The notes beneath the pieces are model-generated. The model was not told where the DNA came from, did not search any database, and was given only the letters and a program-made list of their open reading frames with translations. Positions 4,105 to 38,528 of a DNA stretch of 64,000 nucleotides are shown piece by piece; the first letter of the stretch is position 1, and each line of letters starts with the position of its first letter. This DNA is from a virus. Position numbers and translations under genes: made by a program. The stretch is from IMG/VR virus record IMGVR_UViG_3300044691_000116, positions 1-64,000 of that record. One strand, given 5' to 3'.

Positions 4105-4971
4105 ATGACCGAAACCACTCAAGCCGCACGCCAGGTGCAAATCGTCAGCCGCTGGAATTCGTCCCGTGTGCTGTTCTCGTTCGATGTGCCGGCAACGGTC
4201 GCGAGCGGAATGGAGACGCGAGCAGCGCTGGAGTCCGCTGTGGCTGGCGGCGCCAACCTGCGCGGCGCCGACCTGAGCGACGCCGACCTGAGCGACGCCA
4301 ACCTGCGCGGCGCCGACCTGAGCGACGCCGACCTGAGCGACGCCAACCTGCGCGGCGCCGACCTGCGCGGCGCCAACCTGCGCGACGCCGACCTGAGCGG
4401 CGCCGACCTGCGCGGCGCCAACCTGAGCGACGCCAACCTGCGCGGCGCCGACCTGCGCGACGCCGACCTGCGCGACGCCAACCTGCGCGGCGCCGACCTG
4501 CGCGGCGCCAACCTGAGCGACGCCAACCTGCGCGGCGCCGACCTGCGCGACGCCGACCTGCGCGACGCCGACCTGCGCGGCGCCGACCTGCGCGGCGCCG
4601 ACCTGCGCGACGCCGACCTGCGCGGCGCCGACCTGCGCGACGCCAACCTGAGCCCAATCAAGGCCGACTACTTCGACGTGCTGCTGCGCGCGCCGCGCGA
4701 GATTCCTGCTCTACGCGCCGCCTTGGTTGCCGGCAAGGTGGACGGCTCCTGCTACGAGGGCGCGTGCGCGTGCCTTGTGGGCACGATCGCCAATGCTCGC
4801 GGTGCGCAGTACGACGCGCTCGGCTCCGGTCTGGCGCCGAATTCGAGCCGACCCATCGAGAGCTTTTTCATGTCAATCACGAGCGGCGACACGCCGGAAA
4901 CGAATCAGGTGTCAAAGCTGGCTGTCGAATGGCTCGACGAGTTCGCCGGCTTGTTGTCTGCCGCCGCCTGA
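4105..4971 (+). CDS. pentapeptide repeat protein
   Basis: 27 A(D/N)L(R/S)(G/D) units, plus a C-terminal [17 protein letters not shown] domain. Confidence 0.92.
4252..4656 (+). repeat. 15-bp coding tandem repeat, 27 units
   Basis: Unit GCC(A/G)ACCTG(A/C)GCG(A/G)C. Confidence 0.95.
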
Positions 4972-11119: not shown

Positions 11120-11489
11120 TCGGGAGTTGCTTGAAGCTGCGGCTCGCGCCTTCTGGGCCGGTGAGATCGACGATGTCGTGTCGATCGAGTGGGGCACCCA
11201 GGACGACTGCATTCTGTACACCCACGCCGACAACCAAGACCACAACGGCCACGACCGCGCGTTTCGATGGGATCCACTGGAGGAAAATCACGACGCATTC
11301 GAGCTGGCGGTGAAACTCAATCTCATGATCTTTCCGGATGATGACCCAAAGGGGGATCGCCGCTACAGCCTCGTCGAATGCGGGATCACTGGCAAATTCG
11401 GATCGGTGGATTGGACTGACGATCCCTATGCCGCCACCCGTCGGGCCATCGTCCTCTGCGCCGCTGCTCTTGCGAAGGACACCCCATGA
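11112..11489 (+). CDS. hypothetical phage protein
   Basis: MSDRELLEAAARA...WDPL....DAF.LAVKL...ATRRAIV..AA pattern. Confidence 0.75.
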   Translation: MSDRELLEAAARAFWAGEIDDVVSIEWGTQDDCILYTHADNQDHNGHDRAFRWDPLEENHDAFELAVKLNLMIFPDDDPKGDRRYSLVECGITGKFGSVDWTDDPYAATRRAIVLCAAALAKDTP

Positions 11490-11646
11490 AACTCCGCAAC
11501 CTGAAGCACCACAACGTCTCCGCCCTGCTGGCAACGCCACGCGTCTATCTCCGCGTTCCCGGCGGAATTCCTCGCCAGGACGCCTACCGAGCACTGCGCA
11601 ACATGACCAAGAATGGCCGCATCGTGTGGCCGAAGAGGGAGGGGGC

Positions 11647-11940
11647 ATGCTGACCGCTGCGCAACTTGCTACCGAACTGAACGTCAGCGTCCGCCACGTT
11701 GAGCGCTGCGCCGCGGCCGGGATGCCGTCCATTCTCGTCGGCGCCCGAGCCAAGAGGTACGATCCAAAGACCTGCCTATCCTGGCTTGCAGAGCACAGCG
11801 GAGAACTGTCCACATGCCGATCAAACGCACCCCGCAAGGCGGTTTCTCGGTTCGTGTCTGCGTCCGCGGTCAACGAGCTCACCGCCGCCTCGCGCCGGGC
11901 ACTCCTGCGTCTGACGCAAAGAGAGTCGAATCAGAGCTGA
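11647..11940 (+). CDS. excisionase-like HTH protein
   Basis: MLTAAQLATELNVSVRHVER...GMP...RYD winged-HTH pattern, directly upstream of and overlapping int. Confidence 0.7.
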   Translation: MLTAAQLATELNVSVRHVERCAAAGMPSILVGARAKRYDPKTCLSWLAEHSGELSTCRSNAPRKAVSRFVSASAVNELTAASRRALLRLTQRESNQS

Positions 11941-12797
11941 GGGTTGCGCTAGAGCGCAAGGCGCCCGAGAAGCGCTCGGTGGCTATCCCCGGCGACCCAC
12001 CCATGTTCGACGTGCTCACGCTCTACACCGAGGAGGCGGAGCACCTGCGCAGCCCGAAGACGAACCAGAGCCATGCCGCCCGGATCGCCGCCCACGTCCG
12101 GGAGTACCGGGCCAGTGACGCTCGAGCTTGTGCAGCAAACTTCGTGAAAAAGGCCCGCGCCGGGAAGTTCGCCGTTGGCACGATCAACCGCAGTTTGGGC
12201 TGCATGCGCCGCGGGCTGTATCTCGCGTGGGAGAAGGGGCTGACGCGCGAGGACTACAGCACCCAGGTCAAGGCGCTCCCCGAGCACAATGCCCGCGAGA
12301 CGCATCTTTCCGTCGCCGAGGTGCGCACGCTGGCCGATGCTGCGAGCGAGAACGTTCGGGCAGCCATCTGGATCGCGCTTCTGACGGGGTGCCGGCGAGG
12401 CGAGGTCTGCCAGATCAAGGCCAGCGACATCGGCGCCGACTCGATCCTGATCCGGGCCGGTAACACGAAGACCCTGAAGACGCGCACGGCGCCCATCTTC
12501 CCGGCCCTTCGGCCATGGTTGGGCTACCTGCCCCTTGCTATCAACTTCGAAGGCGTGAAATCTGGCTTCCGGCGCGCGCGTGAGGCTGTCGGAATGCAGC
12601 ATGTCCAGTACCGTGACCTGCGTCGGTCTTGCGGGATGCTGCTACTGTCGCTCGACGTTCCGCTCGACGTGATCCGCGACGTGCTCGGCCACGCCAGCAT
12701 TAAGACCACGGAGACGCACTACGCGCACGCGATCGTCTCGCGTCAGCGCTCGGCGCTGGAAAAGCTAGGCGCCCTGACCGAAGGCAAGGCCGCGTAA
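11814..12797 (+). CDS. int: tyrosine integrase
   Basis: TGCRRGE, RDLRRS and LGHASIKTTETHY catalytic motifs. Confidence 0.93.
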   Translation: MPIKRTPQGGFSVRVCVRGQRAHRRLAPGTPASDAKRVESELRVALERKAPEKRSVAIPGDPPMFDVLTLYTEEAEHLRSPKTNQSHAARIAAHVREYRASDARACAANFVKKARAGKFAVGTINRSLGCMRRGLYLAWEKGLTREDYSTQVKALPEHNARETHLSVAEVRTLADAASENVRAAIWIALLTGCRRGEVCQIKASDIGADSILIRAGNTKTLKTRTAPIFPALRPWLGYLPLAINFEGVKSGFRRAREAVGMQHVQYRDLRRSCGMLLLSLDVPLDVIRDVLGHASIKTTETHYAHAIVSRQRSALEKLGALTEGKAA

Positions 12798-12798
12798 A

Positions 12799-12873
12799 TG
12801 GTGGGCGGTGCAGGTTTCGAACCTGCGACCCCGTCCGTGTGAAGGACGTGCTCTACCCCTGAGCTAACCGCCC
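12799..12873 (-). tRNA. tRNA-Val (anticodon CAC), full length with encoded CCA
   Basis: GGGCGGTTAGCTCAGGGGTAGAGCACGTCCTTCACACGGACGGGGTCGCAGGTTCGAAACCTGCACCGCCCACCA folds into a complete cloverleaf. Confidence 0.95.
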
Positions 12874-12877
12874 GGCT

Positions 12878-13053
12878 ATGCACCAGTGCCATGCACCAGC
12901 AGCCGTAAGTAGTTGATTCATATGGTAAAGCCCTTGCCGTGTGAAGGCCATTTGGCGGGGCCTGTCGCCCTAGTGCTACCGGGCGTAGAGGGGTCTGCTG
13001 ACGGGCCGTTTCCGCGTCTGTCGGCCATGGTTTTGCACCAATCCATGCACCAG
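12878..13053. other. attP: core GCC-GTGTGAA-GGC (12936-12948), arm-type repeats and IHF site
   Basis: TGCACCA-containing repeat pairs at 12878/12891 and 13033/13045 flank the core. AATCAACTACTTA (minus strand, 12906-12918) matches IHF consensus WATCAANNNNTTR. The core equals a Val(CAC) anticodon loop. Confidence 0.75.
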
Positions 13054-13074
13054 CCTCAGCGCCAGAATGTCCGA

Positions 13075-13314
13075 ATGCTCTACGACCGCGCCCCCTCCTC
13101 CCCCGAGACCGGCCACCCCTGCTGGTACTGCCAGCACTACGGCGGCCCGGCCTGGGGCGACTCGAGCCTGGCGCTATGCAAGCGCGACGGTGAGCATTGC
13201 CGGTCGCAGGCTGAGCGCGGATGCGCGTACTTCGAACGCCTTCCCGGCGTCGACGATGATGGGTGGGAACCGGCGCCGATGGTCTACAAGCCGCTGAAGC
13301 CCATCAAGCGATGA
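13075..13314 (+). CDS. small Cys-rich hypothetical protein
   Basis: CWYCQHY...C...GCAYFERLPGVDD. Confidence 0.6.
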   Translation: MLYDRAPSSPETGHPCWYCQHYGGPAWGDSSLALCKRDGEHCRSQAERGCAYFERLPGVDDDGWEPAPMVYKPLKPIKR

Positions 13315-14488
13315 TGGCTGCCTTTGGCGGCGTTGCCGGCTTGCGCGTGTGGCCGTCGATCACGCGCTGCAGCAGGTTCAGCACGATCCCCGTGAACACG
13401 AGCTTGACCTGGATCTGGTACGGGTCGCGGAAGAAGATGAACGGCAGGATGCTGACCAGGAGGCAGTACAGCGCGCGGGAGTGCGGCGTTGTCGCCTTGA
13501 GGGCCGCGCGCCCCAAGAACGCGCCGACGGCACCGACGAACATCAGTCCACCGATGAACCCGAAATTTCCTATCGTGGCGACGATGATGCTTTGCGCGCC
13601 GAACGGCGACTGATATTCGGGGTAGAGGTCGGTCAACTGAACGATGTGGTCGACCTTGTCAGGCCAGATCGAGCTCGGGATTATGTTGACGAATGAGCTG
13701 ATGAACTCGCCGGGGAACGCGAACCAGTGCCAGTTGTCGCCGAGCACAAACGAGATCCCGGATATGTCCGTAAACAGCGGCTCGGCGAACAGGAAAAAAC
13801 CCAGGCCCGCGAGATCGAACGAACCCAGGCGCAGCATCCCGATCGCCGCGAACACCAGCGGCGCCACGACGATCCACTTGATAATGCGCAACCGATCTTT
13901 TCGTGTGCGCGCGACCCATTTCCAGCGATGGAAAATCACCGCTGCGAACGTCGACGCGACGTAGATCCGGCCGCCCATACTCAGGAGCGCCAACGAGGAC
14001 ACCAGCAACAGCAGGCCGAAGGCGAGCGAGTATCTGCGAAGGGCTGCCTCTTTGCACGCGATGTACTGATAGAGCAGAACCATTTCGAGGGTCGCGATCG
14101 GGCCCATGAGGCTTGGATCGACGCCGCCCACGTAACCGCCGAACAGGAGCTCGCGCGCCTGGAGCGCAAACGTGAGTAGCAGGAGCACATAGATCGGAAG
14201 AAGGAGCTTGCTCGAAAAGCGCGGCCGCACACCCGTACGAAAGGGCCTGGACTTGAACTGGCGTGCGACCCAGTTGCCCGCGATGTAGCAGGCCGGCAGC
14301 AACAACACGTAGGCCGCCAGTGCGTACCATCGGGCAGTGCGGAGGTCGAACTGATCGGCAAATGGCGCCGCCTGGTCGACGAGCGCGAACAGGTTGAAGT
14401 ACCCGGCAGCCATCGGCAGCCCCAGGTAGTAGACCCAGCCGATCAGGAACATATGGACGTGGGACAGCTTGCTCGGACTGGGGGTCAT
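13304..14488 (-). CDS. Wzy-like O-antigen/polysaccharide polymerase (moron)
   Basis: About 390 aa polytopic membrane protein with a MGGR motif after TM helices and a large C-terminal periplasmic loop followed by NFGFIGG; adjacent to attP. Confidence 0.72.
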   Translation of the reverse strand: MTPSPSKLSHVHMFLIGWVYYLGLPMAAGYFNLFALVDQAAPFADQFDLRTARWYALAAYVLLLPACYIAGNWVARQFKSRPFRTGVRPRFSSKLLLPIYVLLLLTFALQARELLFGGYVGGVDPSLMGPIATLEMVLLYQYIACKEAALRRYSLAFGLLLLVSSLALLSMGGRIYVASTFAAVIFHRWKWVARTRKDRLRIIKWIVVAPLVFAAIGMLRLGSFDLAGLGFFLFAEPLFTDISGISFVLGDNWHWFAFPGEFISSFVNIIPSSIWPDKVDHIVQLTDLYPEYQSPFGAQSIIVATIGNFGFIGGLMFVGAVGAFLGRAALKATTPHSRALYCLLVSILPFIFFRDPYQIQVKLVFTGIVLNLLQRVIDGHTRKPATPPKAAIIA

Positions 14489-31399: not shown

Positions 31400-32902
31400 T
31401 CACTGCACTTCGACGCTAGCCAGATTGATCTTGTTGACCGATCCGCCGTCCATGTACCAGAGCGTGCAGGGCGGTGATTTCCGCTGCCCACGCACCAGCG
31501 CAGTCGCATCGAGGATCTGGAGATACCAACCTTGCGACGACAAGGTCGTGTCGATCTTGGTTCCCGCCGCGTTGTTGACCTCGGAGATCTGGAGCGCCGA
31601 CAACGTCACGCCCGGCTGGATCGCGCCGAAGTTGACGCCTTGGTTGATCGGGTCCATGCATGCCGCGTAGATCGCGGCTCGGCCCGGGGCGTTGTAGGGG
31701 ATGCTTTTGAACGCCACCAGCAGTTGCACCAGCGCCAGCTGCAGCGCGTTGTTCAGCCAGATCTGGTTGACGTAGGAGTCCATCCACTTGAAGGGGCCAG
31801 ACACGCGGCCATCCTGGAAGTTCTGGAAGTTCTGGTTGCGCGTAGCGATGGCGACGTAGGCGTTGTAGCCATTGGCGACGAGGTTCGAGTACGACGTGAC
31901 GTCGGTGACGTCGGGCGACAGCCCAGTCTGCGAGCGCCAAGCGAAGTTCGTTCGGCCATTCTTCTGCGTGAAGTCGACCGCGGCCACCGCACCAGAGATG
32001 AACGCCGCCTTGTCGTAGGTCGGCGCGTAGATCGGGCACGTGCCGGAGCTGTTCGAGGCACCCAGGAGATAGGCCAAGCTGGTCGTCGCCGTGGCGGAAC
32101 TCAGCGGCGCCAGATCCGGATCCCACGCGATATAGGCGAAGCCGTTGCCCTGCGCGTTCGTCCAGGCGGCGAAGGCCTGCTTCAGGGTGTTTCCGCTGCC
32201 GCCGTCCGGATCGAAGATCGTGAAGAACGTGGCCCAGTTTTGCGTCACACCAGCGACCGAGTCCATGAACGTGCCCGGAACCGCAGCGATCGCACCCTGC
32301 GAGTTCACGGCGCCATCGGCCAGCCGCAGGTTCAACGCATCCGCCAGCGTGCCCGACGCGAAGCTGATCGTGGAGCTCACGCCCGTCGTGGCGCTGGTCA
32401 GGAGAAAGCCCGACGACACACTGTCGAAGACGAGCGTGAAGCCCGGCGACGTGAAGGCCGCCAGGGTGATGGTCGCCGCGTTGCTGAAGCTGGTGGCCGC
32501 CGAGAGGTTGATCGTGCTCGAGGTCTTGACAACGCCGTCGACAGTCACGATGAGCGTACCGGTCAGGGCCTGCAGCTGCGTCAGCGTCATGGCCGACAGG
32601 GAGGCGCCCCGAAGCCATGCCGCTACCGGGCCGGTGTTGTACTGGGCCATGAGCAGCCCGCCCGGCTTGACGTTCGAGTTGTCGAAGCCGGCGAAGTAGA
32701 TGGCCGCCATCGCTGCTTCCGCCGAGGCGCCTCCGAAGTACGCCGAGACCGAGGTCGCGGCCGGGAACTGGAGGACGGATCCAATCGGGATGCGCGTGCT
32801 CGTGGTCAGCGCAAGGCCGTTCAGGTCAAGGGCCGATCCGCCGGCGCTGATGACGCCCGGCACGATCGACACGAAATAGCTGGCGGGAATGGATTTCGTC
32901 AT
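31400..32902 (-). CDS. tail sheath protein (DUF3383-like)
   Basis: SIPAS..V...PGVISAGG, TQNWATF, W.DSYVNQIWLN and WY.DGGSV. Confidence 0.9.
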   Translation of the reverse strand: MTKSIPASYFVSIVPGVISAGGSALDLNGLALTTSTRIPIGSVLQFPAATSVSAYFGGASAEAAMAAIYFAGFDNSNVKPGGLLMAQYNTGPVAAWLRGASLSAMTLTQLQALTGTLIVTVDGVVKTSSTINLSAATSFSNAATITLAAFTSPGFTLVFDSVSSGFLLTSATTGVSSTISFASGTLADALNLRLADGAVNSQGAIAAVPGTFMDSVAGVTQNWATFFTIFDPDGGSGNTLKQAFAAWTNAQGNGFAYIAWDPDLAPLSSATATTSLAYLLGASNSSGTCPIYAPTYDKAAFISGAVAAVDFTQKNGRTNFAWRSQTGLSPDVTDVTSYSNLVANGYNAYVAIATRNQNFQNFQDGRVSGPFKWMDSYVNQIWLNNALQLALVQLLVAFKSIPYNAPGRAAIYAACMDPINQGVNFGAIQPGVTLSALQISEVNNAAGTKIDTTLSSQGWYLQILDATALVRGQRKSPPCTLWYMDGGSVNKINLASVEVQ

Positions 32903-36995: not shown

Positions 36996-38528
36996 TTAGG
37001 CCCCCTTGTTGAGGTGACGGGTGACGAAGTTGCTGCCGGTGCCCGTGTCCATCGCTGCGGCGGTCTTGGCCGTCGCAGCCTTGGCGGGATCGCCCTTGGC
37101 GAGCAGGTAGCCCGAGAGAACCGCGGCTTCTTGGCCGGCTTGGGCCTTGATGCCCAGCTGCTTGACGCCGTAGGAGGCGACTTCAGCTTCGTTCATCTCG
37201 GAGTGGTCGAAGGTGCCGATGTGGGCGGACAGCTGCTTGGCGAGCGTGTCGCGGCGAGCGATCTGGCCAACGAGTTCCTTGAAGGTCAGGGCGGCGTCCA
37301 TCGACATGTCGGGGTTCTTGTCGGAGTCAGCCGCTTTGGCTTCCTCTTTCTTGTCGTCCTTCTTGTCGTCGTCCTTCTTCTCGAAGTCGGCGTCTTCAGC
37401 CTTCTTCTCGTCGTCCTTGTCGTCCTTCTTTTCGTCGGACTTCTCGGCTTCGTCCATGATCATCTTGATCGCGGGCATCGCCTGCTTGAGGGTCGCGAGT
37501 GCAGCGTCCAGCGTCATGCCGGAGCCGCCCTCGTTTTCTTTGTCAGCCATGGGTGGCTCCTTGGGTAGTGAGGTGGATTGATCGATCGAGTCCAAGACCG
37601 CAACGTCTGGCCCCATGCGCCCGGAATGAACCAGCGCCAAGTGATTGCCGCGAATCGTTCGCTGGATAGCGTCGTAGGCCGCACCTTGGAAAACTCCCTT
37701 GGTGAAGTCATAGACACAGCGATAGCCGCACGACAATTCCCGCTTCCCGGCTTCGATCAGGCCCGCCATGGATTGGGAGAAAACTTTCAGATTCCCGTAG
37801 AGGGTTCCGTCTTCGAAGAACACGTCTTCGCCGATCACGCCCTGAATGCCCTTGCGCTCGGCGGGCATCAACCCGTCCTCTTCGCTGCCCAGCATCACGT
37901 GGTCATCGATCCACGGCAGGAGGCGGAAGCTGTCGATGCATTCCGGATCGGCGAGCTCTTCGGCCGGCCGGTAGACCCGGTACTGACGGTCAGGGTTTTC
38001 CGCGTCGCCGACCTGGCGGCCGAGGTAGGGGAAGACGCCGACCTTGGAGAGCGGGTTGCGCGAAATCTCCGGCCAGCCGTTCGTATCTACGGTTCGCGCT
38101 GACTCGTCCATCGAGACCGCGTCGGTAAGCGCAAGGTTGATCGCCGCAACGGCTTGGAAGGCACCTGTTATCTGGTCCGCAACGGCCGGATGCAAGGGAC
38201 TCGGCAAGTCGGACGTCGTTGCCCAGACATAGCCGTCGTGTTCTTCGTTGAGGGTGGGCGCGAAGGTATCGCCGACGCACAGGAACAGCACGAAGCCGCC
38301 GCGCTCTTCGAGGAGCGTGATGGCGCTGGGTGCATGACCGGTCTCTTCGACGGATTCGCGCACCGCTGCTTGCTCTCCGCTCTCGCCCTCCTCGATTCCG
38401 CCAGCCGGGAATCCCCATGTCGACGGGTTCGAGGCGGCATTGGCTGCGCGCTTGAGCAGCAGCACGCGGTCGCCAGTGATGTAGGCGATGCCGGCAGCCG
38501 TGGCAACAGGGGGGAGTTCTTGGGTCAT
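36996..38528 (-). CDS. prohead protease/scaffold (DUF2213-like) with N-terminal NUDIX domain
   Basis: Nudix box [22 protein letters not shown]; [22 protein letters not shown] and NHLALV..GR.G. Confidence 0.88.

Follow-up and report, generated by a model that had tools for sequence, protein, structure and literature searches.

The DNA analysed here (the window) comprises the first 64 kb of the 73,233-bp IMG/VR virus record IMGVR_UViG_3300044691_000116, which is from a soil phage, and it contains a compact integration module. The tyrosine integrase gene (int; 11814–12797, plus strand) encodes a protein of 327 amino acids that matches Pfam PF00589 (E 3.2e-16) and has phrog_1 as its best PHROG (E 4.6e-32). 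The integrase has 1164 homologues in our searches, mostly betaproteobacterial or metagenomic. Upstream of int lies a gene for a possible excisionase or HTH protein (11338–11940, plus strand), which is weakly matched by phrog_66 (‘excisionase and transcriptional regulator’, E 8.3e-5) and by a small-terminase HTH (E 7.2e-6), and for which no Pfam match was found. The stop codon of int (TAA, 12795–12797) lies one base from the 3′ end of a tRNA gene on the other strand, and the tRNA is followed by the putative phage attachment site (attP). Directly after the right arm repeats of this site there is a small Cys-rich ORF (13075–13314, plus strand) with no match in Pfam or PHROG; a longer frame of this ORF, which begins at 12913 and overlaps attP, is probably over-extended.

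The tRNA gene (12799–12873, minus strand) is called by ARAGORN as a complete tRNA-Val(CAC) and scores 65.6 bits against Rfam RF00005, where the gathering score is 29. It encodes the terminal CCA and has the anticodon stem CGTCC/GGACG. Just downstream, on the tRNA strand, a weak terminator-like hairpin with a T-run is observed (12770–12786, minus strand; one site against 0.5 expected from shuffles). Aligning this tRNA with those of 26 relatives that share its setting (27 sequences, 21 of them distinct, with the duplicate L035 and the 77-nt L065 left out; L numbers denote the loci of the comparison described below) gives standard pairs in 441 of 441 cloverleaf pair cells. Compensatory changes are found at 16 of the 21 pairs, including all five pairs of the anticodon stem, and no shuffle and no slid register of the alignment comes near this covariation. 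That every cell is paired and that the covariation goes beyond both controls argues strongly that the phage tRNAs are working tRNA genes under structural selection.

The putative attP (12876–13054) consists of an arm pair, an IHF site, a core and a second arm pair. The left (P) arm (12876–12900, plus strand) is formed by direct repeats at 12876–12887 and 12889–12900, which contain the heptamer TGCACCA, and the right (P′) arm (13029–13054, plus strand) by direct repeats at 13029–13040 and 13043–13054. Counting both strands, the 64-kb window has 12 copies of TGCACCA where shuffles predict 8.0, and four of the 12, all on the plus strand, fall inside 174 bp at attP. Relatives carry equivalent repeat pairs of the TTACACC/TTGCACC type at the left-arm position. 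Between the left repeat pair and the core, AATCAACTACTTA (12906–12918, minus strand) is an exact match to WATCAANNNNTTR, which we take to be the IHF consensus motif; the consensus has two matches in the window against 0.36 expected. IHF-like matches between arm and core were also seen by eye in L033, L045, L073, L100 and L201. A tyrosine integrase together with two plus two direct repeats and an IHF consensus around a core, here as predicted sites, are the attP features of tRNA-dependent lysogeny.

The core itself (12931–12948, minus strand) is 18 nt long and identical to positions ~28–45 of a host-type tRNA-Val(CAC). It is made up of 3 nt of the 5′ stem strand, the loop TTCACAC (12939–12945), the 3′ stem strand GGCAA and a final GGG. 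Exact matches to the 18-mer lie inside tRNA-Val(CAC) genes with a TTGCC/GGCAA stem in two of the 401 genomes searched, one of which appears to have an unoccupied site. A Rhodoferax MAG is among the two. The first-pass annotation of this DNA had described the core stem as GCC/GGC; its host-type character is borne out, but the description is too short, the identity to the TTGCC/GGCAA tRNA-Val(CAC) spanning 18 nt. The 11-mer CCGTGTGAAGG occurs in exactly two copies in the 73,233-bp record, one in the tRNA anticodon loop (12835–12845) and the other in the core (12937–12947). A pair of 11-mers within 500 bp is uncommon yet possible by chance; a chance origin of this pair was rejected, as it is the only such pair in the record and falls exactly on the anticodon loop, between the repeat pairs.

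The core is not followed by the remainder of a tRNA. The T arm and the acceptor strand (tRNA positions ~46–75) are missing, neither ARAGORN nor Rfam calls a tRNA at the core, and an ungapped comparison with the T-arm/acceptor part of reference tRNAs gives an identity of 0.38, where the true fragments of relatives give 0.72–1.0. Because these positions are missing, the attP cannot restore the host gene. The tRNA 5′ end and the core loop are 65 nt apart and on the same strand, with the tRNA outside the arms. The elements listed by the first-pass annotation, including a core bare of any tRNA 3′ half and, beside it in the same orientation and outside the arms, a whole tRNA-Val(CAC) with the CGTCC/GGACG stem, were thus all recovered in place by ARAGORN, Rfam and the repeat and motif searches.

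The module is embedded in phage DNA. CheckV gives the record a completeness of 100%, and Pfam and PHROG scans reveal a structural module similar to those of E217 and Pam3, with portal, capsid, DUF3383 sheath-like, baseplate J and tail-fibre genes. Further genes encode an endolysin-like protein, a DnaB helicase, a C5 methylase and a DGR comprising bAvd (729–1091) and a reverse transcriptase (1088–2449). By these scans the record has the predicted gene content of a temperate myovirus whose genome is complete and unintegrated. Pfam finds phage genes on both flanks of the integrase, and the 73-kb record holds no tRNA-Val fragment besides the tRNA and the core, so that the module is seen in the attP state. 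A template-like repeat of the DGR (1264–1358) is 90–92% alike to 89–178 and 592–686 and 87% alike to 73053–73141. The two record ends (59–270 and 73022–73233) are 90.6% alike over 212 bp inside the DGR variable-repeat sequence, which suggests either a circular genome with an assembly break at a hypervariable site or the presence of two or three target genes. In the capsid module a NUDIX domain is fused to a DUF2213 protein (36996–38528, minus strand; head maturation/scaffold-like). A 90-nt ‘tRNA-Pro(CGG)’ called by ARAGORN at 4304–4393 (minus strand) is probably false, as it lies antisense within a pentapeptide-repeat ORF (4105–4971).

Of four sequencing runs consulted, only the probable source run contains this region; one of its contigs, 68.5 kb long, covers 12000–13800 unchanged and in the attP form only. 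Three further runs gave short contigs of diverged relatives and many tRNA-Val 3′-half matches that end at 12845; the contigs of two relatives end at 12964–12969, which does not coincide with the expected divergence point. The junction form of the window phage was absent from the contigs of all four runs, rare junctions being beyond what contigs can reveal.

Searching viral contigs with the single integrase protein gave no relative, and an integrase alignment (A1) built from 30 homologues was needed to fetch the loci for comparison. The resulting set of 147 loci comprises the window, 80 viral loci, 20 of 80 genome loci (L082–L101) and 46 of 80 metagenome loci (L175–L220), after 60 distant species-representative-genome loci and 34 distant or tiny metagenome loci had been dropped. 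Classes were assigned from ARAGORN calls and from the flank similarity of every anticodon-loop motif to host tRNAs, with L201 and L088 assigned by eye. The classical free attP, in which int is followed by a tRNA-Val fragment (positions ~27–75) with arm repeats ~100 nt beyond, was found at 83 of the 147 loci, and a further 15 are integrated classical prophages (int, host-type full tRNA, host DNA). The layout of the window, a whole phage tRNA with a bare core, was found at 29 loci, of which 23 are free (including the window), one is cut by the contig end, four are integrated and one is an inverted odd case (L088). The other loci show a full tRNA and then the contig end (four), a contig end right after int (11), nothing recognisable (four), or a bare core without an adjacent tRNA (L202, a 2.6-kb contig). 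Among classifiable loci, 29 with the layout of the window therefore stand against 98 classical ones. Many of the 147 are near-duplicates, and removing identical and short integrases leaves 112 rows (67 classical, 27 with the layout of the window and 18 unclassified).

Loci with the layout of the window are highly regular. The distance from tRNA to core is 62–79 nt in the 27 tabulated cases, the tRNA is always co-oriented, and its isoacceptor type always agrees with that of the host gene that is cut. At the 83 classical free attP loci the 1.5 kb after int never contain a full tRNA-Val(CAC). The att/tRNA unit is inverted relative to int in L003, L019, L043, L088 and L202, and the core of L088 looks degenerate. 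L202 carries a bare tRNA-Val-type core between inverted arm repeats (1420–1800), with no tRNA in the remainder of its 2.6-kb contig. It may represent a phage that, like Daredevil (PMC10865867), breaks the tRNA but has no spare copy beside the site.

The outcome of integration can be read from the four integrated loci with this layout, namely L091 (an Azonexus MAG), L093 (a MAG), L051 (an IMG/VR provirus) and L201 (a metagenome contig). At attR all four share the order int, complete phage tRNA with a non-host stem, two arm repeats, spacer, core and host DNA, and in each the core is fused directly to host tRNA positions ~47 to 1. The host DNA past the junction contains a gltX-like gene and a tRNA-Ala/Glu/Asp cluster in L091, L093 and L051, and a tRNA-Thr in L201. 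In these lysogens the cut falls at the anticodon arm of the host tRNA, and the gene is not repaired but present as two halves only. In the three tabulated lysogens the phage tRNA lies 71–75 nt downstream of the truncated host gene, on the same strand.

Both prophage ends were recovered for L091 and L093. The L091 attL (G001:C15 ~688–736) lies 48.5 kb from the attR on the same contig and has an orphan host 3′ half and phage arm repeats, in the order host ppc-like gene end, host tRNA positions 75 to ~27, phage DNA and three arm repeats. At the L093 attL (G405:C82 ~31,750–31,800) an orphan host 3′ half is likewise accompanied by phage arm repeats, and in both cases repeats equivalent to the right arm lie ~75–85 nt from the core. 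The prophages measure ~48.5 kb (L091) and ~35.9 kb (L093) and are flanked by direct repeats that correspond to the anticodon arm (18 bp and 17 bp, respectively); the host-type arm is found only at the two junctions in both MAGs, which are incomplete. The sole intact tRNA-Val(CAC) found in the 2.6-Mb L091 MAG is that of the phage, although possible incompleteness of the MAG weakens the word ‘only’, and a similarity search of this MAG for valine tRNAs returned tRNA-Val(GAC) and the phage copy only. In L201 the phage-derived 3′ stem strand has a mismatch at one position to what the host 5′ strand requires. By this mismatch the exchange would lie at the loop-proximal stem or 5′ of it, which is consistent with the anticodon loop as the overlap region. 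ARAGORN also calls a 72-nt ‘tRNA-Val(CAC)’ at L162 688–759, the attL of L091, that is assembled from the orphan host 3′ half and phage DNA. The phage side of L162 starts with GGCGG ~25 nt before the loop, and the window (12949–12973) has GGGCG at an equal distance; the likeness may be due to chance or may be a relic of a 5′ half.

The first-pass annotation had held that the host tRNA-Val(CAC) is broken and a whole copy supplied by the phage. The four junctions of relatives, with both ends in two of them, support this, and since they map to the bare core, the crossover in these relatives is not inside the full tRNA. For the window phage itself, neither the contigs of the four runs nor a metagenome scan yielded a lysogen, an attL or an attR; the scan gave no near-identical lysogen, the closest integrase with DNA available being 65% identical. 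The window phage probably uses the same crossover, and its lysogen may depend on the phage tRNA.

Each phage tRNA was compared with its nearest host tRNA, chosen on positions outside the anticodon stem. For the 21 distinct phage tRNAs the two differ at 107 of 210 anticodon-stem positions and at 159 of 1155 positions elsewhere (odds ratio 6.5; neither the sequences nor the paired positions are independent, which makes the p-value nominal). The host-to-host control gives 2 of 110 in the stem versus 21 of 605 elsewhere, the stem being the most conserved part of host tRNAs. Relative to the host-type stem implied by the adjacent core, the phage stem differs at 2–10 of 10 positions in all 27 tabulated loci, and loop position 32 is also changed in five phage tRNAs. 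The tRNAs of the window and of L073 differ at six anticodon-stem positions only; their integrases are 48% identical. The 17-mer of the window's phage-type arm was found in none of the 151 genomes searched, and all 19 of the 19 host-side tRNAs collected have CTGCC or TTGCC stems. On these comparisons the recoding of the stem appears non-random and targeted. With its stem recoded, the tRNA is probably protected from being paired with the core by Int or homologous recombination; evasion of host defences is an alternative reading of the same changes.

A quick maximum-likelihood search (IQ-TREE) was used to build an integrase tree of the 112 rows. The 27 rows with the layout of the window require at least 19 label changes on this tree, 12 of which are forced by well-supported branches. 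The window falls in a 99%-supported clade of 11 rows, the others being nine classical and one unclassifiable, and all of its closest relatives by integrase are classical. The pattern calls for repeated gain or loss of the layout, or else for a tRNA–attP unit that moves independently of int. One tRNA type (stem CCACC/GGTGG) recurs in distant integrase clades, which hints at the latter. We would tentatively suggest that the whole tRNA, P arm, IHF site and bare core form an exchangeable ‘destroy-and-replace’ cassette with perhaps a dozen or more gains or losses in its history. On this view the stem, and in some cases loop position 32, would have to be recoded so that neither the phage's own Int nor homologous recombination can use the replacement tRNA as a second core, and with the spacing of 62–79 nt the replacement could be driven by the host tRNA promoter. 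If this is true, a host-type stem on the phage tRNA would lead to Int-dependent deletion of the P arm or to aberrant excision.

Taken together, the integration module of the window is probably one of tRNA-dependent lysogeny, in which a crossover at the bare core splits the host tRNA-Val(CAC) and the phage tRNA replaces it. The heterobivalent tyrosine integrase would bind the two plus two arm repeats with the assistance of IHF, and the 18-nt core would exchange strands with the anticodon arm of the host tRNA-Val(CAC), the 7-nt anticodon loop being the most likely place. Since neither a T arm nor a 3′ acceptor strand is present in the attP, integration would leave the host gene as two dead halves. 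The phage tRNA, which lies between int and the P arm, would then sit on the strand of the truncated host 5′ half, ~65 nt downstream of it, and would take over decoding as tRNA-Val(CAC). The compensatory stem changes would leave only the loop common to the phage tRNA and the core, and the recoded stem would plausibly prevent Int or homologous recombination from treating the phage tRNA as a second att core.

How the phage tRNA might be transcribed can be considered from its position. Its placement just downstream of the host 5′ half, on the same strand, fits the suggestion that the host tRNA promoter drives it. Consensus scans around the phage tRNA, and ahead of the host halves in L091, L093 and L051, gave no sigma-70-like promoter, results that are uninformative rather than negative. 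In L093 the junction hairpin and T-run (4517–4533) scan as terminator-like, and several relatives with the layout of the window have a T-run directly after the core hairpin, where the window has only TTT. Such a T-run might stop transcription of the truncated host half, and these features argue against simple read-through from the host promoter. It should also be considered that tRNA-Val(CAC) may be dispensable if a tRNA-Val(UAC) reads GUG, in which case the ‘dependence’ part of the known mechanism may not hold here.

The attP may have been read correctly and the phage tRNA nevertheless serve a different purpose, either the translation of GUG-rich phage genes or escape from tRNA-targeting defences, with the host tolerating the loss of tRNA-Val(CAC) by virtue of another valine tRNA that reads GUG; we regard this as unlikely. 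It is favoured by the changed loop position 32 in five phage tRNAs and by the L091 MAG, where only tRNA-Val(GAC) and the phage copy are seen by similarity search. A study that we count on the same side reportedly describes phage tRNAs that evade anticodon nucleases via loop mutations. The discussion in PMC10865867 itself names defence evasion as a possible selective force. However, the coupling of tRNA and core is strict: a bare core without an adjacent tRNA is seen only in L202 (the 29 loci of the layout having both by definition), full tRNA-Val(CAC) genes are absent from the 1.5 kb after int at all 83 classical free attP loci, and the tRNA is always the cut isoacceptor, co-oriented and 62–79 nt from the core. 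The divergence is moreover concentrated in the att-core stem and not in the loop that nucleases usually read.

A different assignment of the core would make the complete tRNA at 12799–12873 the attP core and the second, 11-nt copy incidental or a relic. Although the tRNA stands beside the int stop codon, where most relatives carry their tRNA fragment, and the closest integrases to that of the window are classical, it is the second copy and not the tRNA that the repeat pairs and the IHF site enclose. All four of the four lysogens with the same layout join at the bare core and leave the phage tRNA untouched. The arm of the window tRNA is found in none of 151 genomes and the core arm in real tRNA-Val(CAC) genes, and the 19 host-side tRNAs all have CTGCC or TTGCC stems; this assignment is accordingly very improbable. 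Finally, the record might not be a free phage but tandem prophages, an assembly chimera or some other integrated or rearranged element, with the tRNA a host gene and the att-like site a leftover. The IMG/VR label ‘linear’ would agree with this, and int followed by a full tRNA is also typical of an integrated classical prophage (L026, L083–L087). Phage genes nevertheless continue on both sides, there is no second tRNA fragment in 73 kb, the record ends are 90.6% alike over 212 bp in the DGR variable region as for a broken circular genome, the 68.5-kb contig of the source run covers 12000–13800 unchanged, and the same free layout occurs at 22 other loci. An integrated element is hardly credible on this evidence, and the specific case of an integrated classical prophage with the host tRNA rebuilt beside int was rejected on the same grounds.

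Anticodon-loop tRNA attP sites that restore the gene through a 3′ segment reportedly belong to the sublocation classes of Williams in 2002. Classical tRNA-restoring attP sites are also covered by Islander. The classical form, found as a free attP at 83 of the 147 loci, shares with the window the integrase family, the target tRNA and a loop-centred core. It differs in that its attP includes everything of the tRNA between crossover and 3′ end, a segment that is absent at the window core.

The mechanism proposed here is already published (PMC10865867, PMC8631192), and the window probably extends it. tRNA-dependent lysogeny has been reported for the actinobacteriophages Fionnbharth/K4, Cluster L, Cain, Gaia, BrutonGaster and Mollymur (Guerrero-Bustamante and Hatfull, mBio 2024, PMC10865867), in which the phage tRNA is required for lysogeny; it is genetically demonstrated in mycobacteriophages and inferred in Gordonia phages. 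Those phages and the window have in common a lambda-like tyrosine integrase and arm-type site pairs, predicted ones in the window, that flank a short core. The core measures 8–17 bp and overlaps a host tRNA gene in the actinobacteriophages; in the window it measures 18 nt and is identical to the anticodon arm of host-type tRNA-Val(CAC) genes. The tRNA is not rebuilt after integration in the actinobacteriophages, nor in the lysogens of the window's relatives. Close integrase relatives with a classical long core at the same tRNA exist in both settings (Boilgate versus Fionnbharth in PMC10865867, and the 83 classical loci here), multiple origins are inferred for both, and in Gaia the tRNA lies downstream of int as it does in the window.

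The two settings also differ. The phages of PMC10865867 are siphoviruses of Actinobacteria that target tRNA-Lys, tRNA-Ile2 or tRNA-Leu, whereas the window is from a myovirus whose relatives form lysogens in Burkholderiales/Azonexaceae-type and Xanthomonadales-like genomes and target tRNA-Val(CAC). The Fionnbharth tRNA can be far from attP and has its own demonstrated promoter, in contrast to the fixed 62–79 nt and common orientation seen here. Divergence concentrated in the anticodon stem is found here and is not described in the available parts of that paper.

Another precedent is provided by vTRX32-1-like podophages of Rhizobium leguminosarum (Front Microbiol 2021, PMC8631192), in which a 12-bp att motif lies inside the host tRNA-Leu and the host gene is interrupted, as in the lysogens of the window's relatives. 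These phages carry a whole tRNA-Leu without the att motif, which the authors read as replacement and as prevention of ‘super-integration’, the same logic as that proposed above for the recoded stem. The phage type, integrase and tRNA are different, and the available text of that study is bioinformatic only and has no comparison with classical relatives or statistics on phage tRNA divergence. Sinorhizobium papers also mention integration that breaks a host tRNA with a replacement tRNA from the phage. Among the papers listed for ‘tRNA-dependent lysogeny’, the titles and opening lines of abstracts gave none on betaproteobacterial phages or on tRNA-Val, and the prevalence of the phenomenon beyond actinobacteriophages is left open in PMC10865867.

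There are practical consequences. Boundary-finding tools that expect the tRNA to be restored, with its 3′ fragment displaced, will misplace prophages of this kind, tRNA annotators will label the phage tRNA as a host gene, and integration vectors derived from such phages would need the tRNA too. For the biology of the family, the likely reading of the window and its relatives is that tRNA-dependent lysogeny now extends to environmental phages of Betaproteobacteria and of a Xanthomonadales-like host, with tRNA-Val(CAC) as a new target. Destroy-and-replace and classical forms occur side by side in one integrase family, with frequent switching of layout between them. Two regularities are added to the known mechanism, in that the replacement tRNA keeps a fixed distance and orientation to attP, and its divergence from host tRNAs is concentrated in the att-core stem.
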